From assembly GCA_018658715.1 (NCBI GenBank), contig JABHUQ010000111.1, positions 6,280 through 70,279 of the forward strand: a stretch of DNA of 64,000 nucleotides, read 5' to 3'. Made by a program: the position numbers and the translations under genes. Origin of the DNA: Fidelibacterota bacterium (GTDB taxonomy: Bacteria > Fidelibacterota > Marinisomatia > Marinisomatales > UBA1611). Shown here piece by piece: positions 38,652 to 62,998 of the stretch (the first letter of the stretch is position 1; every line of letters starts with the position of its first letter). The notes below the pieces were generated by a model. It searched no databases and had not been told where the DNA came from. It worked only from the letters and a program-made list of their open reading frames with translations.

Positions 38652-38652
38652 C

Positions 38653-41574: not shown

Positions 41575-41578
41575 GATT

Positions 41579-44547: not shown

Positions 44548-45197
44548 TGGAAAATATTTTCATATTCATTCCTGTAATACTTGGTGTAATGGCTGCAAAT
44601 ACAATGAAATATTTATTTGCCTTTTTTGATGTAGCTGAACCGAAAGCTATATCACATATTCCAATTTATGAATTATCGTTAGGGCTTTTATGGGCTTGGG
44701 CATTTGTTGAACTTCCAATGATTGAAGCATTTATTTTCTCATTGATTACACTGTTAATAACCGCAATTGGATGGATTGATTTAAAATCATTCAAAATTCC
44801 ATTTCTATTAATTATAACTTCAAGTTTAATTTTAATTGGATCAATCTTTTTAGACCAAATCCAAGCTACACCAGCATTTTTGGGTTTAAGTATTGGAGGA
44901 ATAATCCCTTGGGCTATTATGGTAACTACGTCCATATTTACTAAAAGAAAAGGCATGGGAACTGGAGATTTTCAACTAGGAATTATTCTTGGAATATGGC
45001 TTGGTCCTGTTCGAATGGCACTTACATTATTTATGGCAAGTTTTTTCAGTCTATTAATGTGGGCCTATATATCAATGTCCTTGGGTATTGATAAAGATCG
45101 TGCTTTGCCATTTGCCCCTTTTCTAGTTTTCGCAGCCATAGATATTTATATAGCAAGTTATTATTATCCAAAATTTTTCCATCATTTAATGATTTAA
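44547..45197 (+). CDS. pilD: A24 prepilin peptidase lacking the N-terminal Cys-rich domain
   Basis: Catalytic WIDL...IP and GMGTGD, plus LPFAPFL; 216 aa; no CxxC pairs. Confidence 0.85.
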   Translation: MENIFIFIPVILGVMAANTMKYLFAFFDVAEPKAISHIPIYELSLGLLWAWAFVELPMIEAFIFSLITLLITAIGWIDLKSFKIPFLLIITSSLILIGSIFLDQIQATPAFLGLSIGGIIPWAIMVTTSIFTKRKGMGTGDFQLGIILGIWLGPVRMALTLFMASFFSLLMWAYISMSLGIDKDRALPFAPFLVFAAIDIYIASYYYPKFFHHLMI

Positions 45198-45210
45198 TAG
45201 AGAGGACTTA

Positions 45211-48200
45211 ATGAAACACATATTATTAATAATTAGCATCTTTTTTGTCGCTATTAGTTCAGCTACAGATATACCAACTTCAAAAATTGATGATGGCTTT
45301 TCCTTTTTAGGGATTCAAAATGGAAAGCAAACAATTGGATTTGAAAATATTAATTATTCTCTAAAAACAATTGAACATTCCGGCACAGTATATCAAAAAC
45401 CAGAATTATTATCTGCTGGATCTGTTGTGGATGAAGGTGAACCATATTTACCTTCAGTAACAACCTATTATGCTGTCGAACCTGGAAAAACTTTTGAAGC
45501 CCAGATTGAAATATTAGAATCTGAGATCATTGAAAATGTTAATGTTATTCCATTCCATGGCTGGGAAAAAGATTCATTTGACCCAGAAATACCGTTAGCT
45601 CGAAATTCATCACTTTATTCTGACAATCAACTTTTCCCAAACAATATTGTGCAAGTTTCAGAACCGATCGTCATGAGAGAATTAACGATGGTAAAGGTGA
45701 CTATAACTCCATTTCAATACAATCCAGTTACACAAGAATTAAAAGTCATCCAAGAAGCAAATATTACAATGGATTCAGAAGGAACAACGGATGCTGGTTT
45801 TCGTCCGTTAACACGTTCTCGTGCTTTTGAACCACTTTATAAATCAATGGTTGTGAATTATGAAGATTATAGCCGTGATGATGTGCCCTATCAACGTCCG
45901 TCTATATTATATGTTATTCCATCCAATATTGGAAGTTTAATGTCTACTATAGAACTATTGATGGACTGGAAACATCGATTAGGCTATGAAGTGAATTATG
46001 TATCAAGTACAAGTGTTGTAAATAATTCTACTAATTTAAAAAACTACATTGAAGACGCCTATGAAACGTGGGACAATCCACCTGAATTTGTAACGTTCTT
46101 TGGGGATGCTAGTGGTACATATGATATTCCAACTTATTACGAAAATTGGAGTGGATATAATGGAGAGGGGGATCATCCCTATTCACAACTAGAAGGATCA
46201 GATATATTCCCTGAAGTATTCTTGGGAAGAATGTCTTTTTCAACCCAATCACATTTAAATACAATAGTTGGTAAAATATTAAATTATGAAGCATCCCCTT
46301 ATATGGGAGAAGATTGGTTTACAAGAGCCTGTTTAGTCGGGGATCCTTCAACTTCTGGAATTTCTTGTGTCATAACGAATGAAAATATTAACTCAATATT
46401 AGATATTAATGGCTACACAGATGTAAATACAATTTATAGTGGATCCTTTCCATCACAAATGGTTAGTGGCATCAATGAAGGTGTTTCCTTCTTCAATTAT
46501 CGGGGATATTATGGTGTAAGTGGATTCACAAGTTCAAATGTGAATAGTACATCAAACGGATTTATGCTCCCTGTAGCGACAGTAATAACATGTGGGACGG
46601 GTTCTTTTGGTGGCGATTCTATTGCTGAATCATTTTTGCGTGCAGGAACTGCTACAAATCCTAAAGGAGCAGTAGCTAGTATTGGAACGGCTACTACTGG
46701 AACACACACCATGTTTAATAATATAGTTAACATGGGCTTTTATTATGGGACATTTATTGATGATATTGAAACAGCTGGGGCAGCTTTAATGCAAGGTAAA
46801 CTTTATTTAGCAAAAGGTTATCCATCTAATCCAAATAATTATGTGTCTATTTTTACACATTGGAACAGTTTAATGGGAGATGCTTCACTCCAAATGTGGA
46901 CTGAATTTCCAAGTACATTTAATGTGGAATATGAAAGTTGGGTTATGTCCGGGACAAATTATATGGACATTCATGTAGCTTCAGGACCTGTTTCTGTAAG
47001 TGATGCATGGGTTACCATATTAAGAGATGGTGATATTTTTGAATCAGGTTATACTGACCAATCTGGAAATGTAACGCTCGATATACCTTCATCTGATGAT
47101 GGTGAAGTTTTAATTACAGTGTCGAAGAAAAACCACGTACCATACCAAGGATCTTTCCAAATTTATGACCCAGGTGTGAGTGTATACATTGTAGAAGATT
47201 ATGTAACCTATAATGATGACAATGTTGGTCAATCTTCTGGGAATAATGACGGATTAATAAATGGGGGCGAAACGATTGAACTTTATATTCCTTTTAAGAA
47301 TTATGGTACCGAAGATGGAACAGAATTAAGTATATCACTTTCGACTGATAATTCTCATGTTGTTATCATGAATTCTGATTTATTGATTGGAGATTTAGAC
47401 GCACAGCAAATGGTAATTCCAGAAACACCATTTGTTCTATCCATAGAGAGTGGTGTTCCTGAAGGCATGAATATTCCAATTATAGTGAATATTTCAGATA
47501 ATAGTGGTGGTGCTTGGCAGGGAATGGTGAATCTTGAAACGCGTGGAAATAATATAACAGCTCATATTATTAATGTTCTAGGAAATAATGATAATGTATT
47601 AGAATCTGGGCAATCATCTCAAATTGAAATAATATTAGCTAACAATGGGTCAACAAATGCTACATCATTAACAGGAACAATGATAAGTCCTTCACCAATG
47701 ATAGATATTGTAGATAATGAAGGTTCTTGGCCTTTGATTGGAGCAGGATCCGTTGGATCAAATTCATCCAATACATTTGAAATAGCCGTTTTAGAAGGAA
47801 CAATCCCAGGGACCATCGTCCATTTAATTATAAACCTAGAATCTAGCGATGGGTACGAAACAAATATTGTTGTTCCAGTTCAAATTGGAATGCCAACTGT
47901 ATTCGATCCTTTAGGCCCAGATGATTATGGTTATTACATTTATGATAGTGGTGATGCTTTATATAATCTGGCACCTTATTATTCTTGGGTGGAGATAGAT
48001 GATCGTCAAGGTGGGCCTGGCTTTCATCTTAACTCATTAACAGATTCAGGCAACAATGGTGATGATGTTGAAACGGTTACTCTTCCATTTTCTTTTAAAT
48101 TTTATGGACTATCTTATGATGAAATAAGTATTTGTAGTAATGGTTGGATTGCAATGGGTGAATCAACATTAGAATCTTTTCGGAATTATGAATTGCCAGG

Positions 48201-48801
48201 TCCTGCAGGACCATCTCCTATGATAGCAGGATTTTGGGATGATTTACAATTGACGAATGGCGGTCGAGTTTATACGTATTATGATCAAGCAAATCATCAA
48301 TATATTGTTCAATGGTCCCAAGTAAGAACATATCAAAATAATTCTACGAATACATTTCAAATTATTTTGAGAGATCCTGCATATTATTTTGGTCCCACTG
48401 GGGATGGGGAAATATTAATTCAATACAAAGAATTTAATAATACATCCTATGGTAGCTATGGCTGGGGACAAACACATGGTAATTATGCAACAGTTGGAAT
48501 TGAGGATCATACAATGACGGTAGGATTAACCTATACATGGAATGATACTTATCCTACAGCATCCATGGAATTGGGTGATGAAACAGCCATTCTTATTACC
48601 ACGCGTGGAAGTGAAGTTCGCATGTTTGGAGATTTGAATATGGATGAAGTCATTAATCTTTTTGACATTCTTGGTCTGGTAGATTATATCTTAGGCAGTG
48701 GCGCACCAATAAATCCATATCTTGGCGATATTAATCAAGATGGTATGATAAATGTATTAGATATGCTTGGCCTAGTTCAAATTGTAATGGGGTGGCGATA
48801 A
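45211..48801 (+). CDS. C25 gingipain-like protein with propeptide, Ig-like and NIDO-like domains and a C-terminal dockerin
   Basis: GEPYLP propeptide, PFQYNPV, WK..LGY, GDHPYS.LEG.D.FPE..LGRM, NYRGYY, ITCGTG, GAVA.IG, LMGD; C-terminal GDLNMDEVINLFD / GDINQDGMINVLD. Confidence 0.88.
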   Translation: MKHILLIISIFFVAISSATDIPTSKIDDGFSFLGIQNGKQTIGFENINYSLKTIEHSGTVYQKPELLSAGSVVDEGEPYLPSVTTYYAVEPGKTFEAQIEILESEIIENVNVIPFHGWEKDSFDPEIPLARNSSLYSDNQLFPNNIVQVSEPIVMRELTMVKVTITPFQYNPVTQELKVIQEANITMDSEGTTDAGFRPLTRSRAFEPLYKSMVVNYEDYSRDDVPYQRPSILYVIPSNIGSLMSTIELLMDWKHRLGYEVNYVSSTSVVNNSTNLKNYIEDAYETWDNPPEFVTFFGDASGTYDIPTYYENWSGYNGEGDHPYSQLEGSDIFPEVFLGRMSFSTQSHLNTIVGKILNYEASPYMGEDWFTRACLVGDPSTSGISCVITNENINSILDINGYTDVNTIYSGSFPSQMVSGINEGVSFFNYRGYYGVSGFTSSNVNSTSNGFMLPVATVITCGTGSFGGDSIAESFLRAGTATNPKGAVASIGTATTGTHTMFNNIVNMGFYYGTFIDDIETAGAALMQGKLYLAKGYPSNPNNYVSIFTHWNSLMGDASLQMWTEFPSTFNVEYESWVMSGTNYMDIHVASGPVSVSDAWVTILRDGDIFESGYTDQSGNVTLDIPSSDDGEVLITVSKKNHVPYQGSFQIYDPGVSVYIVEDYVTYNDDNVGQSSGNNDGLINGGETIELYIPFKNYGTEDGTELSISLSTDNSHVVIMNSDLLIGDLDAQQMVIPETPFVLSIESGVPEGMNIPIIVNISDNSGGAWQGMVNLETRGNNITAHIINVLGNNDNVLESGQSSQIEIILANNGSTNATSLTGTMISPSPMIDIVDNEGSWPLIGAGSVGSNSSNTFEIAVLEGTIPGTIVHLIINLESSDGYETNIVVPVQIGMPTVFDPLGPDDYGYYIYDSGDALYNLAPYYSWVEIDDRQGGPGFHLNSLTDSGNNGDDVETVTLPFSFKFYGLSYDEISICSNGWIAMGESTLESFRNYELPGPAGPSPMIAGFWDDLQLTNGGRVYTYYDQANHQYIVQWSQVRTYQNNSTNTFQIILRDPAYYFGPTGDGEILIQYKEFNNTSYGSYGWGQTHGNYATVGIEDHTMTVGLTYTWNDTYPTASMELGDETAILITTRGSEVRMFGDLNMDEVINLFDILGLVDYILGSGAPINPYLGDINQDGMINVLDMLGLVQIVMGWR

Positions 48802-48821
48802 TAAAGTAATCTAGGAACATT

Positions 48822-50003
48822 ATGACAGCTTTTCCCTTAATCATACTTGGATTTTTATTACTCTTCTTGTTAGGGGCGGGTGTATTAGAGTTCCAACTTC
48901 ATCAGCGTGTTCTTGCTACGATTCCATTACGAATTCACGTAAATGGAACTCGGGGAAAATCTAGTGTAACGCGTCTAATAGCGGCTGGATTAAGAGCAGG
49001 CGGTTTACGCACATTTGCAAAAACAACTGGAACAGCGCCTCGTGTAATAGACATGGAAGGGAAAGATAGAATCATTCATCGACTTAGGTTACCATCCATA
49101 GGCGAACAGGTAAGGTTAATGTCTTTTTTCTCAAAAGAAAAACCAGATGCAATGGTGATGGAATGCATGGCAGTACAACCACAATATCAATGGATAGCAG
49201 AGCACCAAATGATTCAATCACAAATTGGCGTTATTACAAACACTCGACCAGATCATCTGGAAGAAATGGGACCAACAGAAAAGGATGTTGCATTGTCTCT
49301 ATGTAATACAATTCCAGAAAATGGAAGCTTAATTACAGGGGAAGTTGAAAAATATTCTATCTTAAAAGATGTGGCTGCTTCTCTAGATACATCTTGCATA
49401 TTATCCAACGAATCCACCGTTTCTGAAGATGAATTAAATGCCTTTAATTATTTAGAACATCCACAGAATGTAGCCGTTGCTTTAGATGTATGTGATGCCG
49501 TGGGTATTGATAGAAATGTTGCTTTAAGTGGGATGCAAAATGTGCAACCTGATTTAGGTGCATTGGTCGTTTGGAAATGTGGTTTTGATAATAAAACAAT
49601 TTCATTTGTAAATGGAATGGCTGCCAATGACCCTGTTTCAACTTTACAAATTTGGAAATTTATAATTGATCGATATCCTGCTAAAGGTGGAACATGTGTT
49701 TTACTGAATTCGCGTGAAGATCGACCTGTACGAACACGGCAAATGATAGAATTAACACTTGAAGAAATAAAACCAGATCATTTTATAGTCAGAGGGAATA
49801 AAGTAGACTCATTATTAGATCGTTTGCATCATCATTCGCCCTTGACTCAATTTCATACTATTGGATTAGATCAACCGACCCAAAAAACAATTGAAATGAT
49901 AAAAACTTTAACAAATGATTCATTGGTATATGCCATTGGGAATCAAGTGGGTGCTGGACAGGAAATTTTAAACCAATTAAACATGGTAAGAGTAAATGGT
50001 TGA
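48822..50003 (+). CDS. pgsB: Poly-gamma-glutamate synthase PgsB/CapB
   Basis: RIHVNGTRGKSSVTRLIAAGL, KTTGT, IGEQ, ECMAVQP, TNTRPDHLEEMG, AANDP. Confidence 0.95.
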   Translation: MTAFPLIILGFLLLFLLGAGVLEFQLHQRVLATIPLRIHVNGTRGKSSVTRLIAAGLRAGGLRTFAKTTGTAPRVIDMEGKDRIIHRLRLPSIGEQVRLMSFFSKEKPDAMVMECMAVQPQYQWIAEHQMIQSQIGVITNTRPDHLEEMGPTEKDVALSLCNTIPENGSLITGEVEKYSILKDVAASLDTSCILSNESTVSEDELNAFNYLEHPQNVAVALDVCDAVGIDRNVALSGMQNVQPDLGALVVWKCGFDNKTISFVNGMAANDPVSTLQIWKFIIDRYPAKGGTCVLLNSREDRPVRTRQMIELTLEEIKPDHFIVRGNKVDSLLDRLHHHSPLTQFHTIGLDQPTQKTIEMIKTLTNDSLVYAIGNQVGAGQEILNQLNMVRVNG

Positions 50004-50439
50004 AGTGTCAATTGGTTTAGGGATTGTTCTTAGTCTAATATTATCAGAATCGTTAGGTGTTACTGCAGGAGGCATTATTGTTCCTGGGTATATATCACTT
50101 TATTTGCATCAGCCGTTACAAGTTTTAATTACATTTGTAGTGGCAGCGATTGTATATGGAATTATTCATTTATTGAGTAAAGTTATGTTCCTATATGGAA
50201 AAAGACGATTGGTATTAGCATTAATTCTTGGCTTTTTCCTGGGGTATATATCGAGGCATTATATTTATTCGCCATTTGATAATTTATCTTTTGCTGTGAT
50301 TGGTAATATTATTCCAGGTCTCATAGCAAATTGGATGGATCGTCAAGGTGTTGTTCGAACATTATCAGTGGTTATTGTAACGGCAGTACTTGTAAAACTA
50401 TTGGTTATGATTATATTTGGAGGACAACTCGTTGTCTAA
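49996..50439 (+). CDS. pgsC: Poly-gamma-glutamate biosynthesis protein PgsC/CapC
   Basis: E.LG.TAGGIIVPGY, LYGKRR, IGNIIPGLIANWMDRQG. Confidence 0.95.
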   Translation: MVEVSIGLGIVLSLILSESLGVTAGGIIVPGYISLYLHQPLQVLITFVVAAIVYGIIHLLSKVMFLYGKRRLVLALILGFFLGYISRHYIYSPFDNLSFAVIGNIIPGLIANWMDRQGVVRTLSVVIVTAVLVKLLVMIIFGGQLVV

Positions 50440-51583
50440 TTATAAAAAACAACCCTTTATTCCAATGATTCAGAAAACATCTACTTTAGTAGGGCTAGCA
50501 GTATTAAGTATTGCATGTTTTACATTTTCAGTCAACAATAAAGTAATTGATGTTTCTCCTACATATGATTTAAAAGTAAAAGCAGCTCAATTAATGAAAA
50601 AGGGCATGGAAGAACTCAAACAAGCTCGAATGGAAAAAAGTATATTTGTTGATTTAGAGAATGACCCAAATGAAACAGGGTTGGTTGGGAGTCCATTTAG
50701 CTTAATAACGACTGATGAAGGTGATTTAGACGCAAAGCTTACGACTCTGGATCCTAACTTTTCTGCTGCATTAGTTGAACTTTATTATCGCGCAGGTCTC
50801 AAATCAGGTGATACTGTTGCTGTCTTACTAACAGGGTCAATGCCTGGTGGTAATATAGCTGCCCTAACTGCATGCAAAACGATGGGAATAACACCTGTAA
50901 CAATAACATCTGTCGGTGCATCTCAATGGGGAGCTAATCATGAAGATTTTACATGGCTCGATATGGAAAATATTCTTTTTCAAAAAAGTATTATTTCAAA
51001 TAGAAGTATAGCTGCTTCTATTGGAGGTAGGAATGATTTGGGACGATTATTGAGTCCTAAAGGTCGTGATCTTATTCGTAAAAATATTGCTGACCATGAA
51101 TTGCCCATTATTCATTATAATCGTTTAAAAAATAATATTCAGGAACGGCTCAAACAATTCTCATCAATATTGCCTATTAAGTCGTATGATGCATTTATTA
51201 ATGTTGGGGGTGGAGTTGCAAGTTTAGGAACATCTTTTAACCATAAGTTGCTCCCTCCGGGTGTAATTCTTCGGAATCATATAACTGACATTACACGTCC
51301 AGGTGGTATTGAGGGTGTGTTATCTCATTTTGCAAAACAGAATGTACCTGTTGTTCATATTTTAAACATTAAATCGCTCACGGAATCGTTAAACCTTCCA
51401 TTTGCACCAATACCAATTCCTGATATCGGTTCAGGCAAATTATATGCTAATGAGACATATAATCTCATTATTACCTTTTTAGCATTTATGGTTGTTGCAG
51501 GTGCTGTAGTAGGAGTTGGATTTCATAGTAAGAAAAGAATTAAGGAACACTTATTACAACATGAACCAGATAGTTTATTATAG
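50417..51583 (+). CDS. pgsW: Poly-gamma-glutamate system protein (PgsW-like)
   Basis: DPNETGLVG...ITT..G.LDAKLTT.DP, GSMPG, SVGASQWGAN, INVGGG; N- and C-terminal TMs. Start uncertain (TTG 50417 or ATG 50465). Confidence 0.85.
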   Translation: MEDNSLSNYKKQPFIPMIQKTSTLVGLAVLSIACFTFSVNNKVIDVSPTYDLKVKAAQLMKKGMEELKQARMEKSIFVDLENDPNETGLVGSPFSLITTDEGDLDAKLTTLDPNFSAALVELYYRAGLKSGDTVAVLLTGSMPGGNIAALTACKTMGITPVTITSVGASQWGANHEDFTWLDMENILFQKSIISNRSIAASIGGRNDLGRLLSPKGRDLIRKNIADHELPIIHYNRLKNNIQERLKQFSSILPIKSYDAFINVGGGVASLGTSFNHKLLPPGVILRNHITDITRPGGIEGVLSHFAKQNVPVVHILNIKSLTESLNLPFAPIPIPDIGSGKLYANETYNLIITFLAFMVVAGAVVGVGFHSKKRIKEHLLQHEPDSLL

Positions 51584-52442
51584 AAAAATTCTTATAACCA
51601 TTTTAGGTATTATTTTTGTAGGTACCTTAGATGCCACATTGTTGAAACCTTCGGAGAATGGTGAAAAGAAAGAAATACTCATAATTAATAAAAAAAGACG
51701 TCTGTATTATCCTGTGCAAAATGAAGGATTAGTTTACTCGGTCTCGGGTCCAATTCGGCTAGAGTTTATTTCTCGATATCCTATTCTTAAAAAAAATAAA
51801 AAAAGTCATCCATTCCAATACAAAATTGTTGTGAATAAACAGGATACTATTCAGGTAAAACATCGATATAAAATTCAAAAAAGGATTAAATCGGTTCAAC
51901 ACCCAAAGCACTATTACTCATATTCTGGGAATTATTTCATAAATATTCCAAAGGGTGAACATCATATTCAAGTTCTTCCATCAGGCAAATCAAAATATCC
52001 CGTTCTCTCTCGTGTATTAGCAAAAGATTTTGAAAAGGTTGGGAAAGAAAAGCGAATTATAATGCCAATGGTACATCAATCAGCTATTCCATTAAAAATC
52101 CAAGGGAAAAAAATGGATTATTATGAATGTTCACAGAAATTGCCACTTCAGATTGAATCTAATGGCCCTAAGTCGATTAAAATATTAAGTCGACTTTCAT
52201 TTAATGAATTAATGGGACAAGAATCTTCATATAGGGTTCGAATTAAAAGTGGTCAAAAAGTAGTTGGAACATTCTATTTTAACACTGAGCGATCATCTGA
52301 AACAACCATACCTGACCATCCTGAATGGGTACCAGGAAAATGGAGATCCTGTGAAATTAAGGTCCCAAAGGGTAAACATGTTTATACTATTAAAATTTTA
52401 GATGTAAACAAATCTATTTTGGCACGTTTTATTGAGTATTAA
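51561..52442 (+). CDS. Basic exported hypothetical protein with two repeated beta-rich domains
   Basis: Signal peptide; GPIRLEFISR...IPKGEHHIQV and GPKSIKILSR...VPKGKHVYTI; Lys/Arg-rich. Probable start ATG 51561. Confidence 0.7.
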   Translation: MNQIVYYRKILITILGIIFVGTLDATLLKPSENGEKKEILIINKKRRLYYPVQNEGLVYSVSGPIRLEFISRYPILKKNKKSHPFQYKIVVNKQDTIQVKHRYKIQKRIKSVQHPKHYYSYSGNYFINIPKGEHHIQVLPSGKSKYPVLSRVLAKDFEKVGKEKRIIMPMVHQSAIPLKIQGKKMDYYECSQKLPLQIESNGPKSIKILSRLSFNELMGQESSYRVRIKSGQKVVGTFYFNTERSSETTIPDHPEWVPGKWRSCEIKVPKGKHVYTIKILDVNKSILARFIEY

Positions 52443-53462
52443 ATGAACAGGTTCTTATTATTTGTAGTATTGGCCTCTACATTGGGTGCTAGTACGCCAC
52501 TTTATATGACTTTTGGATTGGAAAATGGCTATGACTCCAATGTATTAAGATTGTCTGAACTTGAAAAAGGGGAAGCTGCACATTACTTAGACATGTTAGG
52601 CGGTATGGAAACATTTGATTCCCACATACTTAAAGGATCTATTCAAGGGAAAAAAGAATATTATATTCGTGGTAGAGTTCTTGCATTTTCGGGCTCGTTT
52701 GGGTTAACAAATTATTCCCATTCTACACACAAGCAATATAATTCTCATCGTTTACTAGTTTCTTATAAATTAGGGTCATATAAAAAAATTGATTATTTGA
52801 TTAACCATTTAGATCAATACTATTTAAGGCATTATATAGATAGGGATATTTCTTCTACACTTTTAAATGCTGCTGCCTTTACAGATAGAAACCAAAGAAT
52901 TGGATTTTCATATCCATTATTAAAGCGTACATGGTTAAATATATGGGGCGGATATTTACAGAGATATTATAACAATCCATTTACAGAATTTGATTTAGAT
53001 ATATATTATGGAAAGATAAAAATAAATCGATCAATTCGAAAATTTGGTACGGTTGGAATTCAATTTGAACAGGGTAGAGCTGTAAATAAAACTTTTGGAG
53101 AAACGGCTGTAGCAAGTGATTTTGACAGGAGTTATAATTATTATCAATTCTATATCCCTATTAGCAAAACAAAACGGAACCGTTGGACAGATGGAGTTGG
53201 ATTTTCAACAAGGGCGGATATTCGTACCTATGATGCTGAAAATTTGAGTGATCCATTACATGCAGGGAGAAATCATTTAGATTTGAAACTAGATGTTTGG
53301 GCGAAAAAAAATATTACAGAATGGATTACGTTAAAGTCTACTCTTCGTTATCGATCACGAAGTACCAAGTCTCAATTTGAGTGGGTAGAATCTCTCAAGA
53401 GTTTTAGTCAATGGCAACTAGCGTGCAAATTAGAATGGAATATGATTTATGATAAATATTAA
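52443..53462 (+). CDS. Putative outer-membrane beta-barrel protein
   Basis: Signal peptide, GLENGYDSNVLR N-terminal strand, alternating aromatic/polar strands rich in Tyr and Arg, aromatic C-terminus. Confidence 0.65.
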   Translation: MNRFLLFVVLASTLGASTPLYMTFGLENGYDSNVLRLSELEKGEAAHYLDMLGGMETFDSHILKGSIQGKKEYYIRGRVLAFSGSFGLTNYSHSTHKQYNSHRLLVSYKLGSYKKIDYLINHLDQYYLRHYIDRDISSTLLNAAAFTDRNQRIGFSYPLLKRTWLNIWGGYLQRYYNNPFTEFDLDIYYGKIKINRSIRKFGTVGIQFEQGRAVNKTFGETAVASDFDRSYNYYQFYIPISKTKRNRWTDGVGFSTRADIRTYDAENLSDPLHAGRNHLDLKLDVWAKKNITEWITLKSTLRYRSRSTKSQFEWVESLKSFSQWQLACKLEWNMIYDKY

Positions 53463-54468: not shown

Positions 54469-54478
54469 GAAAGAAAAA

Positions 54479-57400
54479 ATGAAACATATACACAAAATAA
54501 TTATTATACTTTTAAGTTCAATCTTATTTGGGCAAAACTTATTAAACGAAGCTGGAATTCCAATTCGTCAAGGAATTCACATAGAATGGTTTAAAACGGT
54601 TAGTCCAGGAACAGATGGGACCGCCATATTTGTATGGTCAGACAATAGATTTGGACCGCGTAATATTTTTGCTCAAAAAGTTAATGGAGATGGAGAATTA
54701 CTTTGGGGTGAAGCTGGTGCAGTTGTAACTGATCTACCAGGTAGACAGGAAGACCCTGTTTCTATTTCTGATGGAAATGGTGGTGTTTTTATTGCTTGGA
54801 TCGATTATCGTTTTGATGAAGAGGGGGATGTATTCTACCAACACATAGACTCTGATGGGTATAGATTACTTGATGATAACGGGATACCATTGGCTTTAAT
54901 ACCAAGCAAGCAAATATCAATAAATATGTGTACTGATAGTCTTGGTGGTGTATTTGTTACTTGGCAAGATAAGCGAAATCAGGTTGATGAAGATATTTAT
55001 GGAACCCATATTTCTTCAGATCATTTAGTGGTAGAGCCAGGATTAGGTGTGCCTGTCATTGTTGCCGGTGGAGCTCAAATGGCTAAGAGTATTGAATATG
55101 CTGGAAATAATGAAGCATTTATTGTTTGGGCTGATGCACGAAATGGCGGAAATATGGACATTTATGGTCAACGATTGGATATGAATATGAGTCCACTTAT
55201 GACTAGTGATGGATTTCCTGTTGCGTCATCTGATATGCTCGAAACACGTCCTAGAACAACTTATATGTCGAATAATCAATCATTTGTAACATGGAAGTCT
55301 GGCGATGAAAGTTCAGAAATTTTATATCAAATTATAGATCCTAATGGTTTTGTGCTAATGGCGCCTGTTAAAGTTTCACAATTTGATGCGATTCAGAAAT
55401 CACCACGTATCAAACGAAATGCCAACGGAGAAGTATTTATTAGTTGGACAGATTTAAGATTTGATTCAATTGATGGTGATATATTTTTCCAAAAAATTGG
55501 ATTGGATGGAACTATTTTATGGGGAGACGGAGTTCAGTTGGATACATCCGATGAAAAAAATCTGAATGGACGATTTGCAGGAGACGAAAATGGTGGATTA
55601 TATGTTGTATGGGAAAGAGGCAGCTTCCCCGATACGGATATTCCTGCTCAATATTTTTCTCCTGATGGTGTAGCAGAATGGACAAATGATCAGCATATCT
55701 CAAATGCGAATGGGAATCAAGATGCTCCAAATGTTGTTTATTCTGCAGATATTGGTTTATTTACAATTTATGGAGACAAATCATCTGGAAGTGTCGATTT
55801 GCGAGTTGATTACCCTCTGGATGGTAGTTCTCCTTTCTCTGAGAATGATATTCTTGGTGCAACAGGAATGGATGGCGATGTAAAATATATTAAGGGATTC
55901 AATGCAAATGCAGGTGAATCCATTTTATTATGGGAAGATAACCGTTATTCACAAAAGATTTATGCTGATCGTGCCATTAATGAAGATTTAGAACATACAA
56001 ATGGAGTCCAAATTACTTATTCAGATGATTCTGCATCTGATGATGATTTAACTTATCCTCGATATCATTTTGATGGGAATCATTTATATGTTGCCACATT
56101 CGATGGTTCTGGAACACCAAAATCCATGCGTATCAATAAATTAACCACGGATTTTGAAAATGTTTGGGGTGACTCAGGTGTAGTAGCTACTAGTTCAATG
56201 GATCAGTGGAATGGGCAGCTCATAGGTCTTGATGGAACAATCGGTTGTTTTTGGAGTCAATATCAATCCATAAGCATGGATGCATTTTTTCAACGATTTG
56301 ATGATAATGGTACACCATTACTAGATGGAAATGGGAAAGTATTATTAGATGGATGGAATGATGAATTCTTATTAAAAGCATTTAATACACCTGATAATAA
56401 AATTATGATATTCTGGTTGGATAATGCATGGCATAATGCAACATTGAAAGTTAAAAAAATAGATTTAAATGGAAATCTAGCTGTAGGTTGGCCATCCGAT
56501 GGGTATAACTTGAGTGCTGGTGTTTATGAAATACATGATTTTAGTGCCAATATTGTTTCAAATGACGATGGTATTTTTACAGCATGGCGACAAACAACAA
56601 GCACAGAAACGGAAATATACGGCCAAATGGTTGATTGGGATGGAAATATGGTTTGGGGTGATGCTGGAATTTCTATATCTAATGCTGAGCAAGATCAGGT
56701 GAATCCATCCATGGATATTGATCCTATAGGCAAAACTGCTTTTGTAGCTTGGGAAGATTTAAGGAATGGAAATGATTATAACATTTATGGACAAGAAATA
56801 GATTTAATTACAGGTGAATTATCCGGCGAAGCTGTACAATTTTCATCTGATACAACCCAACAATTAAAACCATACGTAAAAAATGTATATGAAAATCACT
56901 ATTTTATTTTGTGGGAAGATGGACGTGGATTTAATACAATAGACCCACTGCTAACAGGTGGGACAGATATTTATGGCGCAGGGTATAGAACAACAATTGG
57001 TATGACATCCGAAATAGATGGATTTTCTGTTGTAAAGAATTATCATGACCAAAAAGATATTCAAGTGACATCTTACAATCAAGAATCGCAATATTTGCTC
57101 CATTGGATTGATTTAAGAAGTTCAGGGAAAGAAGATATTTACAATTATTACGGTCGTATTGTTGAAGTGGCTGATTTACTGAATGTAAAAGACGATCATG
57201 AAGTTTGGGCTCAAGATTTTAGCCTCCATTCAGCTTATCCAAATCCATTTAATGGTGCAGTTCAATTTTCATTCAATATGAAAGGAACAAACCCAGTCGA
57301 ATTTGCAATATTTGACCTAACAGGTAGAAAAGTTTCTGATCGCTTAATTCTTCCTAATGCATCTGGGACATATCAGATTTCATGGAATGGTACAGATATG

Positions 57401-57490
57401 CGTGGAGTAGATTTATCTAGCGGAATATATTTTTATCAGTTCAAAGCTAATAACGTAATAATTAAAGATAAAATTACATACTTAAAGTAA
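54479..57490 (+). CDS. Secreted repeat (beta-propeller) protein with C-terminal sorting domain
   Basis: Many DG.GG.FI.W.D.R...DIY.Q...G...W repeats; AYPNPFN...SSGIYFY...KITYLK CTD. Probable start ATG 54479. Confidence 0.8.
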   Translation: MKHIHKIIIILLSSILFGQNLLNEAGIPIRQGIHIEWFKTVSPGTDGTAIFVWSDNRFGPRNIFAQKVNGDGELLWGEAGAVVTDLPGRQEDPVSISDGNGGVFIAWIDYRFDEEGDVFYQHIDSDGYRLLDDNGIPLALIPSKQISINMCTDSLGGVFVTWQDKRNQVDEDIYGTHISSDHLVVEPGLGVPVIVAGGAQMAKSIEYAGNNEAFIVWADARNGGNMDIYGQRLDMNMSPLMTSDGFPVASSDMLETRPRTTYMSNNQSFVTWKSGDESSEILYQIIDPNGFVLMAPVKVSQFDAIQKSPRIKRNANGEVFISWTDLRFDSIDGDIFFQKIGLDGTILWGDGVQLDTSDEKNLNGRFAGDENGGLYVVWERGSFPDTDIPAQYFSPDGVAEWTNDQHISNANGNQDAPNVVYSADIGLFTIYGDKSSGSVDLRVDYPLDGSSPFSENDILGATGMDGDVKYIKGFNANAGESILLWEDNRYSQKIYADRAINEDLEHTNGVQITYSDDSASDDDLTYPRYHFDGNHLYVATFDGSGTPKSMRINKLTTDFENVWGDSGVVATSSMDQWNGQLIGLDGTIGCFWSQYQSISMDAFFQRFDDNGTPLLDGNGKVLLDGWNDEFLLKAFNTPDNKIMIFWLDNAWHNATLKVKKIDLNGNLAVGWPSDGYNLSAGVYEIHDFSANIVSNDDGIFTAWRQTTSTETEIYGQMVDWDGNMVWGDAGISISNAEQDQVNPSMDIDPIGKTAFVAWEDLRNGNDYNIYGQEIDLITGELSGEAVQFSSDTTQQLKPYVKNVYENHYFILWEDGRGFNTIDPLLTGGTDIYGAGYRTTIGMTSEIDGFSVVKNYHDQKDIQVTSYNQESQYLLHWIDLRSSGKEDIYNYYGRIVEVADLLNVKDDHEVWAQDFSLHSAYPNPFNGAVQFSFNMKGTNPVEFAIFDLTGRKVSDRLILPNASGTYQISWNGTDMRGVDLSSGIYFYQFKANNVIIKDKITYLK

Positions 57491-57493
57491 AAT

Positions 57494-59812
57494 ATGAATA
57501 TCATACGCTCTTTAGGATGGATAATTATCTTTCTGTTTTCAACAGTTATTAGTCAGGAACTTGATTCTCGATACCATACGTTAGAAGAAATCTATGAAGC
57601 TATTTATGCCATAGATGAAGATTCAAATACAGATTATTTTTTTAGGATTGATACAATTGGGTTCTCGACGCTTGAGAACATTCCAATTCTAGCTGTAAAA
57701 ATCTCCAATAATGTAAATGTGCGAGAAGATGAAGCTCGCGTTTTATTTATTGGACAAGTGCATGCAGAAGAAGTCATTGGCGTGGAAAGTGTACTTCAAT
57801 TAATAGATGATTTAGTTAATCCAGAACCTATTCAACAAAATCACGTAAATATTCTTAGAGCTAATCTCGAAATATGGATTATCCCAACAGCTAATCCTGA
57901 AGGATTAAATGTGGTGCACGAAGGCTTAGACGTGAGTTATCGCAAAAATAAGCGTGATTTATCGCCAGAAGGGCCATTCCCAAATGGCGTATTTGATTTT
58001 GACCCATCTGTAGGGAATGATTTGGATGGTGTCGATATAAACAGAAATTTTAGTTTTAATTGGACATTTGGAGATACATTCTTAGAACCTGATGCAAGTG
58101 ACTATGCGTCTCATTATGATTATTACAAAGGGGAAGAACCTTTCTCGGAAGGTGAATCCATTGCTATAAGAGATCTAGCTCTCAGAGAACAATTTCTATT
58201 CTCGATCGTGTGGCATAGCTCTAGATCAGGGCGTTTATCTGAAAAAGTATTTACATCATGGTTATGGGAAGAATCTAAACCCTCACCAGACTTAACGTAC
58301 ATGAAAACCATTGCAGACGATTTTGCAGAAGGAATAGAAACGGAAGATGGATCGGGAACATATTTATCTGTATATAGTGGCTCTCGAAATGGAAAATTAC
58401 ATGATTGGTTTTATCGAGAAACTGGATGTATTCAATATTTAATCGAATGTGGAACAGCGATTCTTCAACCGGATAGCACATTATTGGAAAATACCATCGA
58501 ACGCATAAATCCAGCCATGTGGTATTTAATGGATCGTTCTATTGGATATTATATGGATGCATCCCAATTAACTGGAATTGTAACTGACGCATCCACAGAT
58601 GCTCCAATTCAAGGTGCTATTGTTGAAGTACTAGAGCACAGTGGTTCAGTGTTAAAACCGCGCAAAACGGATGAATTTGGGCGCTATAGACGTATATTGG
58701 ATGTAGGTTCCTATACTGTTTCAATTCGCGCAAAAGGATATGAGCCGCAGATAATCAGCGTGGTTGTTAATAATGCAGCCATTACAAATCAAAATGTTTC
58801 ATTAAATCTGGCTCAAAATTATACATTAAATGTGTCAACAATTATTCATGATTTATTGACTGTGGAAAGTACAGGTTATTTATTTACAGAATTTGGCATA
58901 GATACTCTTATTATAGGTGGAACTAATATTATTGAATTACCGGAAGATGATTATCATTTAACATTAATTCGTATGGGAACAATGATGCCATGGGAAAAAT
59001 CATTTCATTTAAACCGCGATATGTCATTTATTGCTGATTTTCAAGAAGCGAATCCTGTCGCACTCGGTGAATCTTGGCCATGGGAAAATGCACAAGGACC
59101 TTGGATTGTAGGAAATGTTATTCTTAAAACTCAAGAAGATTCATACTACGAAAATGGTGATACAGCATTTACTGAGCAATGGATGGAATCGGAGTTGGTC
59201 GATATGTCAGGAAAAAATCGACTGGTTTTAAAGGTAGATCATCGGTTCGAAACTGAATGGGATTATGATCCAGTTTCAATATCGATGATTGATCAAAATG
59301 ACTCTCTACTTGTCAGTAAATCGTGGACGGGGTTAGCGTGGGGAGATTATCAAACAGATTATATGACAGCAATCAATGAAAGTGGATTTGACAGTGTAAA
59401 AATAAGATTAAGCTTTTTACCGGATGAGACGGTGAATTATCACGGATGGGAATTGCAAGAATTAACTTTATTTTCAGTTAATGATGAATATCTTAGTGTA
59501 GCTGCATCACAAGGTGGTTACATGCCTAAAATTCCATTAACACTCAATAGGATATTTCCAAATCCATCTCAAGGAATGTTTCAACTTGATATTGGACATT
59601 GGCCTGGTGGCAAAGGTGGAATTGTAGTTTATAATTTATTAGGTCAAGAAATAGCTCAATATCCAATTAATCAATTATCTCCAGGACGACACTTCATTCG
59701 ATTGAACTTAGAGCAATCTATGAATAAACTTTTAAGTTCTGGTGTCTATTTTATCGTTTTAAATACAGAGAGGGAAATGGTCACACAAAAATGCGTATTT
59801 ATGAAAAATTAA
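57494..59812 (+). CDS. M14 zinc carboxypeptidase with transthyretin-like domain and C-terminal sorting domain
   Basis: HAEE (HxxE), NPEG, RKN, GVDINRNF, WHS, IEC; CarboxypepD_reg-like GIVTDAST..PI.GA; FPNP CTD. Confidence 0.9.
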   Translation: MNIIRSLGWIIIFLFSTVISQELDSRYHTLEEIYEAIYAIDEDSNTDYFFRIDTIGFSTLENIPILAVKISNNVNVREDEARVLFIGQVHAEEVIGVESVLQLIDDLVNPEPIQQNHVNILRANLEIWIIPTANPEGLNVVHEGLDVSYRKNKRDLSPEGPFPNGVFDFDPSVGNDLDGVDINRNFSFNWTFGDTFLEPDASDYASHYDYYKGEEPFSEGESIAIRDLALREQFLFSIVWHSSRSGRLSEKVFTSWLWEESKPSPDLTYMKTIADDFAEGIETEDGSGTYLSVYSGSRNGKLHDWFYRETGCIQYLIECGTAILQPDSTLLENTIERINPAMWYLMDRSIGYYMDASQLTGIVTDASTDAPIQGAIVEVLEHSGSVLKPRKTDEFGRYRRILDVGSYTVSIRAKGYEPQIISVVVNNAAITNQNVSLNLAQNYTLNVSTIIHDLLTVESTGYLFTEFGIDTLIIGGTNIIELPEDDYHLTLIRMGTMMPWEKSFHLNRDMSFIADFQEANPVALGESWPWENAQGPWIVGNVILKTQEDSYYENGDTAFTEQWMESELVDMSGKNRLVLKVDHRFETEWDYDPVSISMIDQNDSLLVSKSWTGLAWGDYQTDYMTAINESGFDSVKIRLSFLPDETVNYHGWELQELTLFSVNDEYLSVAASQGGYMPKIPLTLNRIFPNPSQGMFQLDIGHWPGGKGGIVVYNLLGQEIAQYPINQLSPGRHFIRLNLEQSMNKLLSSGVYFIVLNTEREMVTQKCVFMKN

Positions 59813-62800
59813 TTCTTACTATACTAATTACTAGTTTTGGTTTTGCAGACGGAATAACATTTCGAGGGAAATCCGTTGAAGCTATGGCCCAGGAGACAAT
59901 TCCATTGGCCTTTCAACATTTTGTTGAATCAGAGTTGGATTTGCCCCATTTGACGAATTTAAATCGTGGAAGTTACCTTATCATTGTTCCGGATGGATTA
60001 GTCAGTTATTTAGATCAATTTGTGTCTTTTAAAAAATCGCAAGGATTTGATGTGAACGTTTCTCTTCTTTCTGAGGCGGGGAGTAGTTCGGATGAGATTA
60101 AAACATTTATCGGCGCAACATTGGCTGAAGACCCCATGCTAGAATATGTTTTATTGATTGGTGATGTGGATGGATTTGCCGCTTTGCCTTCTTTTTACTA
60201 TGGCCCTGAAAATGATGTGTCCGATCAAAAATATTCTCACTTGCTTGGAGACGATATTGTCCCAGATGTCTTTATCGGAAGAATGTCTGTAGACAATTTA
60301 ACGGATTTAATCGTTATTCTGTCCAAAACAATGAAATATGCTCGGGATCCTTTAGCTTATGATCAAAACTGGTTAAATCGTGGTCTTATTGTGGCTGGGA
60401 ATTACAGTAACACTTATCCCATTCCCATTACACCTAAATGGACATCATATTGGTTGCGAGATGAATTGCTTGATTTTGGATATTCAAATGTAGATACAGT
60501 TTTTTATCCACCAACGCAACAAGGGGCCCCCCAAATTATTTCTGCTATCAATCAAGGTGCAGGTATTGTGAATTATCGTGGTTGGGGAGATGCGAATGGT
60601 TGGCATTATCCTGAATTCCATGTAAGCGATGTGAATGATTTAAATAATGGTTGGCTTACACCTGTATTTATGAGTTATGTGTGTAACTCAAACGATTTTG
60701 CTAATAATGTAGATCCTTGCTTATCGGAAGCTGTATTGCGCTCAGGGACACCATCCGTGCCAAAAGGGGGTGTTGCTTTTATTGGGCCGTCTGACCTTCA
60801 TACAAGCACAAAATACAATAATATTATTAATGCATATATGTATGATGCAATGTTGAACCATAAGGTAGTCGAATTAGCTCCAGCTATGCTTGCGGGACAA
60901 CTTGGATTACAAAAAGAATTTCCTGAGCAGGATGACGCGGGGGAAGCACAGGAATTCTATACCCATGTTTATAATATTTTGGGCGATCCTTCCTTGCAAG
61001 TTTATACTGGAACACCCAATACATTTTTATTTGATTATGAACCAATTTATGATAATGATGGATTTCTTGACTTAAGAGTAACAGATATAAATGGCCAAAC
61101 TACTCGTAACGCTGTTATCGCAGTCATGATGAATGATGAATTAATCGCAAAAGGATTAACAGATTCGGATGGGCGGTTTTTGGCAAGCTTGGAAAGTCAA
61201 GCTATCTCTAACTATCAAATATATGCGAATAAGAACGGATATATTCAAGGTATGGTTGAAGTACAAAGCAATGAACCAACATCAGATCTTTATTTGAGCA
61301 ATATTACAATATCATCTGTAGACAATGGTGAAATGGTAGGTTTAGGAGAGTCATTTAGTTTATCTATAATTCTTACTAATTCTTCTGGAAATACGGTTAA
61401 TGGATTTAATGGTACTGTCATTTTCAGTGAAGGTGTTGAGTCACAATCTGTGAATGTAACGATTCCAACATTAGAAAGTGGAGAATCATCTACTATGGAT
61501 TTGGTAGATATTGTGATTTACAATCCATTTCATTCAGTTGGTGCAACATTTAGACTAATTAATGAAAGTGGAGACAGAATAGTTGATGGAGTTATTCCAG
61601 TAGAATTACCAATTTTTAATATTACATTCGAAAATACATCAATTACACCCAACTCTACAATTGAGCCGATTTTATCTGTAGAGAGTTTTTCAAAAGTGTC
61701 GTATAATGATGTACATTTTGACATAGGACAGTCTGTGGATGGCGCAGAAGTTGAATATAATAGCGAGTCAAACAATTTATCTGACTTGAGTCCATTTTCA
61801 TCTTCTTTGGAAAGTACAAATTATACGATTAATATTGATGATGTATCCTATGGCAGTGATATAACATTTTTTATAGACTTTGTTAAGAGTAATCATTCTA
61901 TATATAGGCAGGAAGTTCAACTTCATATTGAGCCTCAAACAGAGAATCTCCCTGTGGCCCCATCTCATTATGGTTATTGGGCATTTGACGATACGGATAC
62001 TGGTTTTGATCAAACACCAACATTTGATTGGGTTGAGTTAGATCCAACCTATGGTGGATCAGGTGCAACAGAATATTTATTAGATGATGATGATCATGTA
62101 GATGTTGATTTGCCATTTACTTTCCAATATCATGGACAGGAGTATGATAGATTAACCATTAGCTCTAATGGATGGGCATCATTTGAATCATGCTATATAG
62201 ATTATTTTTGGAATTATACCATACCAATGTACATGGGCCCGAAAGCATTGTTGGCCCCTTTTTGGGATGATTTAGAAGTTGTGGATGAAAATTGGATTCG
62301 TGTTTATACGCGGTATGATGAAGTCAATGGACAATTTATAGTGGAATGGTCTCGAGTACTGAATGGATATGACGAAGTTACAGAAGAAACATTTGAAATA
62401 ATTTTATATACACAGGAAGCAATGTCAACAGAATCTGGCGATGGTGTTATTGATTTCCAATATTTAGAAATTGATGATGTGGATGCTACAAAAAATTATG
62501 CCACCGTGGGGATTGAATCTCCAGAAAAGAATGATGGAATTCAGTATTCTTTTAATCATGGACTTGCATCAGGAGCTGCTCCACTAGCGAATGAACGGAT
62601 TATTCGATTTACAACATATGCGCCGGACAATTATGTTGCCCCGTTAGATGTGGATAATGACATTTATCCATCCGAGTTTATTTTGTCTAATGCATATCCT
62701 AATCCATTCAATCCAACAACACATTTAAATTTGATGATTGGAGAAGATAAATTTATGTCAGTACTGGTTTATGATATGTTGGGAAGAGAAGTAAATACAT

Positions 62801-62949
62801 TAATGTCAAAATGGATCAATGCTGGTCATCATCAAATCATATGGAATGGACAAAATTATTTAGGACAAATGGTCTCTTCGGGACCATACTTTATTGTGGC
62901 AAAAACTCATAATGATACACGTATCCAAAAAGTATTATTTATGAAATAA
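59791..62949 (+). CDS. Second C25 gingipain-like protein with NIDO-like domain and C-terminal sorting domain
   Basis: YLIIVP, YVLLIGD, SDQKYS...PDVFIGRM, NYRGWG, YVCNSNDF, GGVAFIG, YNILGDP; AYPNPFNP CTD. No full propeptide. Confidence 0.88.
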   Translation: MRIYEKLILTILITSFGFADGITFRGKSVEAMAQETIPLAFQHFVESELDLPHLTNLNRGSYLIIVPDGLVSYLDQFVSFKKSQGFDVNVSLLSEAGSSSDEIKTFIGATLAEDPMLEYVLLIGDVDGFAALPSFYYGPENDVSDQKYSHLLGDDIVPDVFIGRMSVDNLTDLIVILSKTMKYARDPLAYDQNWLNRGLIVAGNYSNTYPIPITPKWTSYWLRDELLDFGYSNVDTVFYPPTQQGAPQIISAINQGAGIVNYRGWGDANGWHYPEFHVSDVNDLNNGWLTPVFMSYVCNSNDFANNVDPCLSEAVLRSGTPSVPKGGVAFIGPSDLHTSTKYNNIINAYMYDAMLNHKVVELAPAMLAGQLGLQKEFPEQDDAGEAQEFYTHVYNILGDPSLQVYTGTPNTFLFDYEPIYDNDGFLDLRVTDINGQTTRNAVIAVMMNDELIAKGLTDSDGRFLASLESQAISNYQIYANKNGYIQGMVEVQSNEPTSDLYLSNITISSVDNGEMVGLGESFSLSIILTNSSGNTVNGFNGTVIFSEGVESQSVNVTIPTLESGESSTMDLVDIVIYNPFHSVGATFRLINESGDRIVDGVIPVELPIFNITFENTSITPNSTIEPILSVESFSKVSYNDVHFDIGQSVDGAEVEYNSESNNLSDLSPFSSSLESTNYTINIDDVSYGSDITFFIDFVKSNHSIYRQEVQLHIEPQTENLPVAPSHYGYWAFDDTDTGFDQTPTFDWVELDPTYGGSGATEYLLDDDDHVDVDLPFTFQYHGQEYDRLTISSNGWASFESCYIDYFWNYTIPMYMGPKALLAPFWDDLEVVDENWIRVYTRYDEVNGQFIVEWSRVLNGYDEVTEETFEIILYTQEAMSTESGDGVIDFQYLEIDDVDATKNYATVGIESPEKNDGIQYSFNHGLASGAAPLANERIIRFTTYAPDNYVAPLDVDNDIYPSEFILSNAYPNPFNPTTHLNLMIGEDKFMSVLVYDMLGREVNTLMSKWINAGHHQIIWNGQNYLGQMVSSGPYFIVAKTHNDTRIQKVLFMK

Positions 62950-62951
62950 TT

Positions 62952-62979
62952 TGTAACATTTATGACTTTTGTACATCTA
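62952..62979 (+). promoter_or_regulatory. Candidate ECF-sigma promoter of grxC
   Basis: TGTAAC-N16-CATCTA, 19 nt upstream of the ATG. Confidence 0.35.
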
Positions 62980-62998
62980 ATGTTAAAAGGAAAATATA

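Follow-up and report, generated by a model that had tools for sequence, protein, structure and literature searches.

The DNA window analysed here is a stretch of 64,000 nt from a Fidelibacterota bacterium (contig C63, positions 6280-70279, of a 2.46-Mb genome that is 96% complete), and it contains a block of ten plus-strand genes at 45211-62949 in which the synthase genes for poly-gamma-glutamate (PGA) stand among genes for envelope and surface proteins. According to open reading frame (ORF) listing, Pfam and NCBIfam, the block encodes, in order, a gingipain-like protein of the Peptidase_C25 family (C25a), PgsB, PgsC, PgsW, a basic protein, a beta-barrel, a lipoprotein, a 1015-aa protein with a type IX secretion system (T9SS) C-terminal domain (CTD), an M14 carboxypeptidase and a second gingipain-like protein (C25b). 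An earlier note on this DNA had given the same order, with no gap above about 20 nt, and both observations are confirmed; the intergenic distances inside the block range from -68 to +20 nt. Comparably tight packing spans 12039-62949, extending about 33 kb upstream of the block across unrelated genes (dihydroorotate dehydrogenase, SpoU, diacylglycerol kinase, CDP-diglyceride synthase and a type IV pilus cluster), with a spacing of 13 nt between PilD and C25a, so that packing alone is uninformative and sets no boundary to the unit. A scan of 44000-63999 for promoters and terminators returned 85 and 8 sites, compared to 99.8 and 9.9 in shuffled sequences, and provided nothing usable.

The three synthase-associated genes are assigned by strong matches to their families. 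In particular, PgsB, the amide ligase subunit of PGA synthase (48822-50003; Mur_ligase_M), matches the equivalog model TIGR04012 with 414.1 bits against a cut-off of 222.7, and its gene overlaps by 8 nt with that of the membrane subunit PgsC (49996-50439), which matches TIGR04011 with 119.4 bits (cut-off 96.45) and Caps_synth_CapC with an E value of 8.3e-33. Adjoining them is a third synthase-associated membrane protein (50417-51583), a 'poly-gamma-glutamate system protein' according to TIGR04332 (300.1 bits, cut-off 100), whose gene name we take to be pgsW, a name not found in the papers searched; among 301 sampled genomes of the phylum, 138 have this protein. The earlier note had stated that CapD is absent, which is correct only for the cluster, where Pfam identifies no G_glu_transpept (GGT/CapD) domain among the ten genes; one gamma-glutamyltranspeptidase (GGT)-family gene is located on another contig of the genome (C68, 547.8 bits). 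The genome's sole PGA_cap (CapA-like) domain is found far from the cluster (C106:7222-9507), in a 1590-aa frame that also carries a dockerin; the same family is matched in 7 of 14 control genomes and is thus not specific to PGA.

Downstream of the synthase genes, a basic 293-aa protein is encoded at 51561-52442; its longest ORF begins at 51516, and 51561 is most likely the start because its orthologues align from residue 16. The protein has no Pfam or NCBIfam family, and the ESM Atlas returned only clusters of its own kind. Its AlphaFold2 model (pLDDT 84.8, pTM 0.55) predicts two beta-sandwich domains behind a hydrophobic helix at the N-terminus; Foldseek ranks tandem CBM51/CBM22 modules highest (E 2.6e-7), with a TM score of only 0.2-0.25. 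With an isoelectric point (pI) of 9.94, compared to a genome median of 5.84, and a net charge of +31, the protein has an excess of positive charge that only 5 of the genome's 1736 ORFs attain, and the net charge is positive in all 13 of its orthologues.

The next gene (52443-53462) encodes a signal peptide and a predicted 14-stranded outer-membrane beta-barrel, modelled by AlphaFold2 from an alignment of 13 orthologues (pLDDT 85.6, pTM 0.80). According to VIA-align, the nearest structures are CymA (Z 23.4, root-mean-square deviation 3.6, 286 aligned residues) and OmpG (Z 20.8), both 14-strand monomeric channels that Foldseek also matches to the barrel with E values of about 1e-8; FadL-type barrels score lower (Z 15-17), as do the exopolysaccharide barrels PgaA (14.3), BcsC (13.9) and PelB (13.7). 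A genome search with the PorV model NF033710 (E <= 0.001) gives 12 matches at 11 places, none of them at the barrel gene (C63:58722-59738); the matches at all 11 places are sub-threshold. The barrel gene is followed by that of a lipoprotein with LVIVD-type beta-propeller repeats (53449-54468), whose lipobox Cys21 (53509-53511) does not vary in either of two orthologue alignments (15 of 15 and 13 of 13 members). These alignments form one family (hhalign probability 100%, E 2.7e-67), and the LVIVD repeats are matched in 8 of the 15 members (best E 4.7e-10). The lipoprotein has no CTD and reaches only 13.4 bits (E 0.098) against a cut-off of 27 with PF21544, the N-terminal propeller of PorZ.

The remaining genes encode surface proteins. 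The 1015-aa acidic repeat protein (54443-57490) contains units of the form W-x-D-x-R ... D-I-Y-x-Q every 54-55 aa and ends in a T9SS type A CTD (57236-57475), which scores 37 bits with TIGR04183 (cut-off 23). A propeller fold, the earlier note's label, can only be presumed; in 11 orthologues, Pfam assigns no family to the first 900 aa, and the ESM Atlas offers only TolB-like and BNR-like leads with scores under 0.9. PF21544 matches none of these 11 orthologues, and matches nothing in the 96% complete genome at E <= 0.001. The M14 zinc carboxypeptidase (57494-59812) consists of an M14 domain (57644-58480; PF00246, 111.7 bits, cut-off 21.6, E 6.8e-32), a CarboxypepD_reg domain (58565-58804) and a T9SS CTD (59552-59797; 35.5 bits). 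Its zinc ligands His90, Glu93 and His241 and its catalytic Glu318 (equivalent to Glu270) are all present, and alignments place the enzyme closest to carboxypeptidases T and D, with the HxxE motif and the second His kept. The 1015-aa protein, M14 and C25b are all acidic, with net charges from -59 to -99, and all three bear CTDs in a genome with a T9SS (SprA 733 bits, PorU 614.7 bits) and at least 50 CTD-bearing frames, which identifies them as T9SS type A cargo.

The two gingipain-like proteins bracket the block. C25a (45211-48801) has a signal peptide, a Propeptide_C25 domain (45325-45870), a Peptidase_C25 domain (45934-46893; 165.3 bits, cut-off 23), a NIDO-like domain (48124-48372) and a type I dockerin (48628-48774; Dockerin_1, 31.7 bits, cut-off 22.9); C25b (59791-62949) has a signal peptide, a Peptidase_C25 domain (59974-60999; 192 bits), a NIDO-like region and a T9SS CTD (62695-62937) that is borderline at 23.1 bits. 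The NIDO-like domains common to both are 35-39% identical. Using phmmer, C25a aligns to RgpB (1cvr/4ief) with an E value of 1.5e-20 and to the RgpB prodomain with 2.3e-15, and C25b aligns to RgpB with 3.1e-24. The C-terminus of C25a is a dockerin in this family and a T9SS CTD in orthologues of other families; the reverse swap is seen in one orthologue of the 1015-aa protein (L108:11150-14062), where a dockerin replaces the CTD. The genome has 8 dockerin matches, of which 7 exceed the cut-off, and a search of the same genome for cohesins returned only marginal matches of 18.5-22.5 bits.

Both C25 domains keep the catalytic Cys of the gingipains and lack the catalytic His. In the phmmer alignments, the position of RgpB His211 is occupied by Tyr433 in C25a (46507-46509) and by Trp265 in C25b (60583-60585), and the equivalent of Cys244 is retained as Cys461 (46591-46593) and Cys298 (60682-60684), respectively; C25a further has a gap at RgpB Glu152 and a Val at the Arg-binding Asp163. 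Across 11 C25a and 6 C25b orthologues, the residue after NYRG is Tyr, Phe or Trp and the Cys never varies, with the C25b motif NYRGWGDANGWHYPEFH being the same in all 6 orthologues compared. Overall, the Cys is kept and the His is missing in 19 of 19 sequences (the two in the window and 17 orthologues), none of which has the His211/Cys244 pair. Additional cluster C25s from other orders and classes have (N/S)YRG, then Tyr, Trp, Phe or Leu, and then the Cys in 27 of 28 cases, the 28th giving no match to the regular expression, and the Arg of the NYRG-type motif is invariant in all of the matched sequences. Because the substitution is shared by orthologues, it is not a sign of decay. With the catalytic His missing, C25a and C25b are not expected to be active by the canonical peptidase mechanism; as the Cys is invariant, some Cys-dependent (acyl-transfer) chemistry could persist.

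The genome's true PorU is encoded on contig C9, beside unrelated housekeeping genes, where it matches NF033707 with 614.7 bits (cut-off 420) and has the motif NYIGHG (Gly-His-Gly) together with the Cys; against the same model, C25a scores 25.8 bits and C25b gives no match. A Gly-His-Gly-Gly (GHGG) motif with the Cys is likewise found in four large C25 paralogues from families that lack PgsW, out of a sample of six regions in which L126 gave no motif match and L127 had no C25 gene. In a quick maximum-likelihood tree of 37 C25 domains, which is unrooted, includes no gingipain sequences and places PorU on a long branch, the His-less domains are split from the His-bearing ones with a Shimodaira-Hasegawa-like approximate likelihood ratio test (SH-aLRT) support of 99, and C25a and C25b each form one group with a support of 100. 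The cluster C25s constitute a branch of their own within the gingipain fold, conserved and without the His, and in the genomes sampled this branch is tied to the PGA cluster. The four GHGG paralogues (L122-L125) are in themselves a second large C25 type, 1518-1635 aa long, conserved in the PGA-less families and flanked by the same genes of about 335 and 255 aa; they may be 'PorU2'-type sortases, and the PorU of the window's genome weakly matches NF052324.

These observations bear directly on the proposal of the earlier note, in which the parts were compared to the T9SS attachment complex and the C25 proteins were suggested to act as transpeptidases. Such a reading makes the His-less C25s atypical Cys transpeptidases, a counterpart of CapD or PorU in a two-membrane (diderm) cell, that link PGA to lipopolysaccharide (LPS) or protein, or cargo to PGA, with the barrel and propellers resembling PorV, PorQ and PorZ. 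It draws on the Cys244-equivalent Cys, invariant over phylum-level divergence, the invariant Arg that precedes the pocket in NYRG, the zymogen-type propeptide kept in C25a, the linkage of C25 to pgsBCW through gene rearrangement (described below), the lack of a GGT/CapD gene in the cluster and the lack of any match to the PorZ N-terminal propeller in a 96% complete genome. However, clan CD enzymes rely on a general acid/base His, and in every cluster C25 examined this position is Tyr, Trp, Phe or Leu; in C25a, there is also the gap at Glu152 and the Val at Asp163. Moreover, the PorU model gives 25.8 bits against 420 at best, the genome encodes a canonical PorU at another place, the barrel has no PorV-family match, neither the lipoprotein nor the 1015-aa protein matches the PorZ model, and a CTD marks C25b, like most C25a orthologues, as cargo in its own right. 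Judged from their residues, the cluster C25s are unlikely to work as canonical proteases or as sortases of the PorU type, the transpeptidase reading as a whole is quite improbable, and the analogy to the attachment complex is not supported by the PorU, PorV and PorZ family models or by the His-Cys pair.

The conservation of the gene order indicates whether the ten genes form a unit. One genome per species (185,579 species) was scanned with the barrel alignment by way of a single peptide pattern, yielding 80 loci from different species; all of the named ones belong to Marinisomatota (SAR406), and a barrel homologue occurs in 32 of 41 related genomes. Counting for each gene only those loci long enough to show it, the core neighbours of the barrel are nearly always present (basic protein 78/78, PgsW 70/71, PgsC 68/69, PgsB 65/65, lipoprotein family 62/63), and the surface genes are present at all or most loci (1015-aa protein 54/54, C25a 52/56, M14 43/48, C25b 39/44); at L094, C25b is present and C25a is missing. 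The series C25a, PgsB, PgsC, PgsW, basic protein, barrel, a gene of about 1 kb and the 1015-aa protein recurs in 20 loci, down to barrel identities of 26-33%.

Further, a PgsW-anchored set of 20 loci covers other orders and classes. In other orders of the class, 12 of 12 loci have all ten genes in order, and in other classes, 7 of 8 loci retain the six-gene core (PgsB through to the lipoprotein); at the exception, L119, PgsBCW is divergent and stands among different genes. In 6 of these 8 loci, a C25 gene of about 1500 aa is relocated directly after the lipoprotein gene. At 5 of the 6, the 1015-aa protein is next and then M14, except at L118, whose contig breaks off within the 1015-aa gene; at L115, a second C25 gene follows instead. 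The C25 linkage is kept despite its changed position, which is better evidence of coupling than collinearity would be.

C25 domains as such are widespread, being found in 268 of the 301 sampled genomes of the phylum. Within one family (f9), however, at least 3 C25 hits occur in 16 of 16 PgsW-positive genomes and at most 1 in 30 of 30 PgsW-negative genomes, a tally that was collated by hand over related, non-independent genomes and that loss of one contiguous block would also produce. The single C25 of the PgsW-negative genomes is presumably PorU, and in this family extra C25 genes are never seen without PGA genes. The window's genome has exactly three C25 genes, namely PorU and the two in the cluster.

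The earlier note had held that a gene order lacking conservation would reduce its packing to genome streamlining; across the families, orders and classes of Marinisomatota the order is conserved. Together with the C25 linkage through rearrangement and the co-occurrence in family f9, this supports a functionally coupled unit rather than a packing effect, and it is well supported that the ten genes work together. The opposite explanation is that no functional link extends past the six-gene core, with C25a, the 1015-aa protein, M14 and C25b being ordinary T9SS-secreted proteins that degrade proteins or particles and whose synteny is inherited in a streamlined genome. This would account for the equal packing across unrelated genes, for the adjacency of PilBCD and C25a, which is also conserved within the order, and for the surface genes that are missing at some loci; moreover, C25 genes of Marinimicrobia are counted as extracellular peptidases in a passage of PMC8359207. 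Against it, the linkage is kept at barrel identities of 22-28% and after C25 repositioning, family f9 has no His-less C25 without pgsW, the genome's only C25 genes are PorU and the cluster pair, and the C25 paralogues sampled from PGA-less families are of a different, His-bearing type. These differences make the explanation very unlikely.

We favour, with somewhat more confidence than doubt, the reading that the cluster is a phylum-wide conserved PGA system adapted to a two-membrane envelope, composed of a core module and a surface module; its probable task is to produce a polymer coat, export it and keep it in place, and not to serve as a sortase. According to their family membership, PgsB, PgsC and PgsW would polymerise glutamate at the inner membrane. 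The basic two-beta-sandwich protein, tethered by its helix, may then bind and escort the PGA polyanion in the periplasm, and the 14-strand barrel and LVIVD lipoprotein may carry the polymer across the outer membrane. A polymerase, a positively charged periplasmic beta-sandwich protein, a barrel and a lipoprotein together match the logic of synthase-dependent export, an analogy that suggests this route for PGA. The 1015-aa protein, M14, C25b and, in most lineages, C25a would be displayed at the surface by the ordinary T9SS, whose SprA and PorU are encoded elsewhere. There, M14 may trim or release PGA from its free carboxyl end, a role that belongs to PgdS, CapD or PghP in other systems, and one made plausible by PghP being a carboxypeptidase-A-related PGA hydrolase. 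In the weakest step of the scheme, the His-less C25s, with their Cys and the invariant NYRG Arg retained at the pocket, together with the 1015-aa CTD protein, may bind or hold PGA, thereby retaining or organising the polymer at the surface.

Several observations weigh against this reading. The making, export and binding of PGA are predicted here from genes alone. In the model of the basic protein, only the fold class appears trustworthy, as its structural match is generic. The basic charge of the barrel was considered as a sign of an anion channel and rejected, since the net charge varies from +16 to -7 across orthologues. C25a has a gingipain-type inhibitory propeptide, which fits a latent enzyme better than a lectin, and the invariant Cys argues that the C25s may be more than mere binders. 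M14 could be an ordinary nutritional peptidase. Further, one locus (L116) has the six-gene core only, without C25, the 1015-aa protein or M14, and M14 and C25b are each missing from five loci and C25a from four, so that the surface module is dispensable or replaceable.

The intact M14 active site can also be taken to mean that the surface module serves the turnover or release of PGA, whereby M14 and non-canonical C25s depolymerise the polymer, which is then shed (for instance to soak up cations or nutrients, or to glue particles) or reused as stored glutamate. Hydrolase genes such as pgdS and capD stand beside the Bacillus PGA synthase genes, and the three CTD proteins are acidic, which makes electrostatic binding of a polyanion unattractive; carboxypeptidase-A-like zinc enzymes can cut gamma-glutamyl bonds, as PghP demonstrates in a passage of PMC4497714. 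A lone carboxypeptidase, however, would be a poor depolymerase for a long polymer, the C25s lack their catalytic His, and the 1015-aa protein and the shared NIDO-like domains of the C25s, conserved and non-enzymatic in appearance, are hard to explain by degradation alone. Overall, turnover as the purpose of the module seems unlikely. A bolder variant would combine the favoured export route with covalent attachment. Here, the cluster would be an undescribed PGA capsule machine of diderm cells, in which a channel, lipoprotein and escort protein export the polymer and His-less, gingipain-derived, Cys-only gamma-glutamyl transferases tether it covalently to T9SS-displayed proteins or LPS, a CapD analogue derived from a protease fold that has gained an Arg at its pocket; we consider this distinctly improbable.

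RNA-library data offer a weak hint that the block is expressed. Parts of 48822-58800 are found in fourteen RNA-library runs from 11 studies, three of which contain 62-76% of the sampled words. Contigs from four marine RNA-library runs (two studies) cover 30, 30, 30 and 28 of the 30 bins of 44000-63999, nearly all at an identity of at least 99%, and they run across the gene boundaries C25a/PgsB, PgsB/PgsC/PgsW, PgsW/basic protein and lipoprotein/1015-aa protein. DNA carry-over could produce the same contigs, and contigs cannot show transcript ends; both points temper the support that these data give to the PGA system.

Several neighbouring features of the window lie beside the block. A complete type IV pilus cluster (29276-45197) abuts C25a and encodes a pilin, a PilT-like ATPase, minor pilins, PilM/N/O, a secretin, a 979-aa Big_1 protein, PilB with a cyclic di-GMP-binding MshEN domain, PilC and a prepilin peptidase. 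Most loci within this order show the same adjacency PilB-PilC-PilD-C25a, whereas those of other orders have a PilB-like gene upstream on the opposite strand. Farther upstream, 17562-24227 contains a series of little-characterised genes, namely those for a MutL-like protein of PF13941 (distinct from the MutL of mismatch repair), a protein resembling RnfC_N, a DUF6754 protein and three ORFs without a family, and is followed by two CTD proteins, one of them M6-like (25174-29130). On the other side, the only sizeable gap (327 nt) follows C25b, after which a family-less basic protein with a pI of 9.75 is encoded at 63277-63999. This protein is kept downstream of C25b, with 21-30% identity within the family and about 80% in the genus, and probably does not belong to the unit.

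In the dark and oxygen-poor ocean, Marinisomatota (SAR406) rank with the most abundant uncultured bacteria; the phylum has a cultured member, Fidelibacter multiformis (PMC11652737). To our knowledge, though no search was aimed at the question, the export of PGA by a two-membrane cell has not been worked out. A literature search yielded, among the matches listed, no paper on PGA genes in Marinisomatota or Marinimicrobia and none describing this cluster; judged by titles, there was also none linking PGA and T9SS. In the reference list of PMC4497714, Fusobacterium nucleatum is named as the first Gram-negative PGA producer. If the favoured reading is true, about half of the sampled genomes of the phylum (138 of 301) would be able to make an anionic polyamide coat, with implications for how cells attach to particles, bind metals and ammonium and resist phages and grazers, and for the amount of nitrogen in marine organic matter. 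The basic protein, the barrel and the lipoprotein provide three concrete candidates for PGA export proteins. Moreover, the annotation of these genes is corrected: 'gingipain C25 peptidases' of Marinimicrobia are counted as extracellular proteases in the same passage of PMC8359207, and the C25s of this cluster are without the catalytic His. As a clade, the His-less C25s offer a natural experiment in how a protease fold can be repurposed.

The cluster can be compared to five kinds of known systems. The Bacillus PGA operons are capBCADE in B. anthracis and pgsBCAE with pgdS in B. subtilis. The present cluster resembles them in having PgsB and PgsC equivalogs at the head of the synthase genes and an enzyme acting on peptide bonds encoded beside them; in contrast, the PgsW-type TIGR04332 protein takes the place of PgsA/CapA, the cluster has no GGT/CapD or NlpC/P60 gene, and six extra envelope and surface genes (including the barrel, the lipoprotein and T9SS cargo) distinguish it from Gram-positive PGA systems. 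The synthase-dependent exopolymer exporters of diderm bacteria, namely PgaABCD, BcsA-C, AlgE/K and PelBC, likewise encode a polymerase, a periplasmic polymer binder, an outer-membrane barrel and a lipoprotein in a row. Here, however, the polymer would be a polyamide rather than a polysaccharide, the 14-strand barrel has no tetratricopeptide repeat domains, and the proteins are unrelated in sequence to those of the exporters.

PghP, a PGA hydrolase, is described in part of PMC4497714 as a zinc peptidase related to carboxypeptidase A. The cluster M14 is similarly a PGA-associated zinc enzyme with a carboxypeptidase-A relationship; it differs in being a classical PF00246 protein with CarboxypepD_reg and a CTD, and in having no match to a PGA-hydrolase family in Pfam. 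The PorU-PorV-PorZ-PorQ complex of P. gingivalis, as presented in parts of PMC8545088, PMC5562754 and PMC12365241, is alike on paper, with a C25-fold protein, a barrel, propeller-type CTD proteins and an anionic polymer; in contrast, the cluster C25s are His-less and below the PorU cut-off, the barrel is nearest to CymA and OmpG, and there is no significant PorZ match. Finally, the gingipains RgpB and Kgp (MEROPS C25; 1cvr, 4ief, 4rbm) share with the cluster C25s the C25 fold and the Cys244 equivalent, as well as the prodomain of C25a and the CTD of C25b. Unlike the gingipains, the cluster C25s have Tyr or Trp at the His211 position, with Val at Asp163 in C25a, carry added NIDO-like C-terminal domains, and form a separate His-less group.

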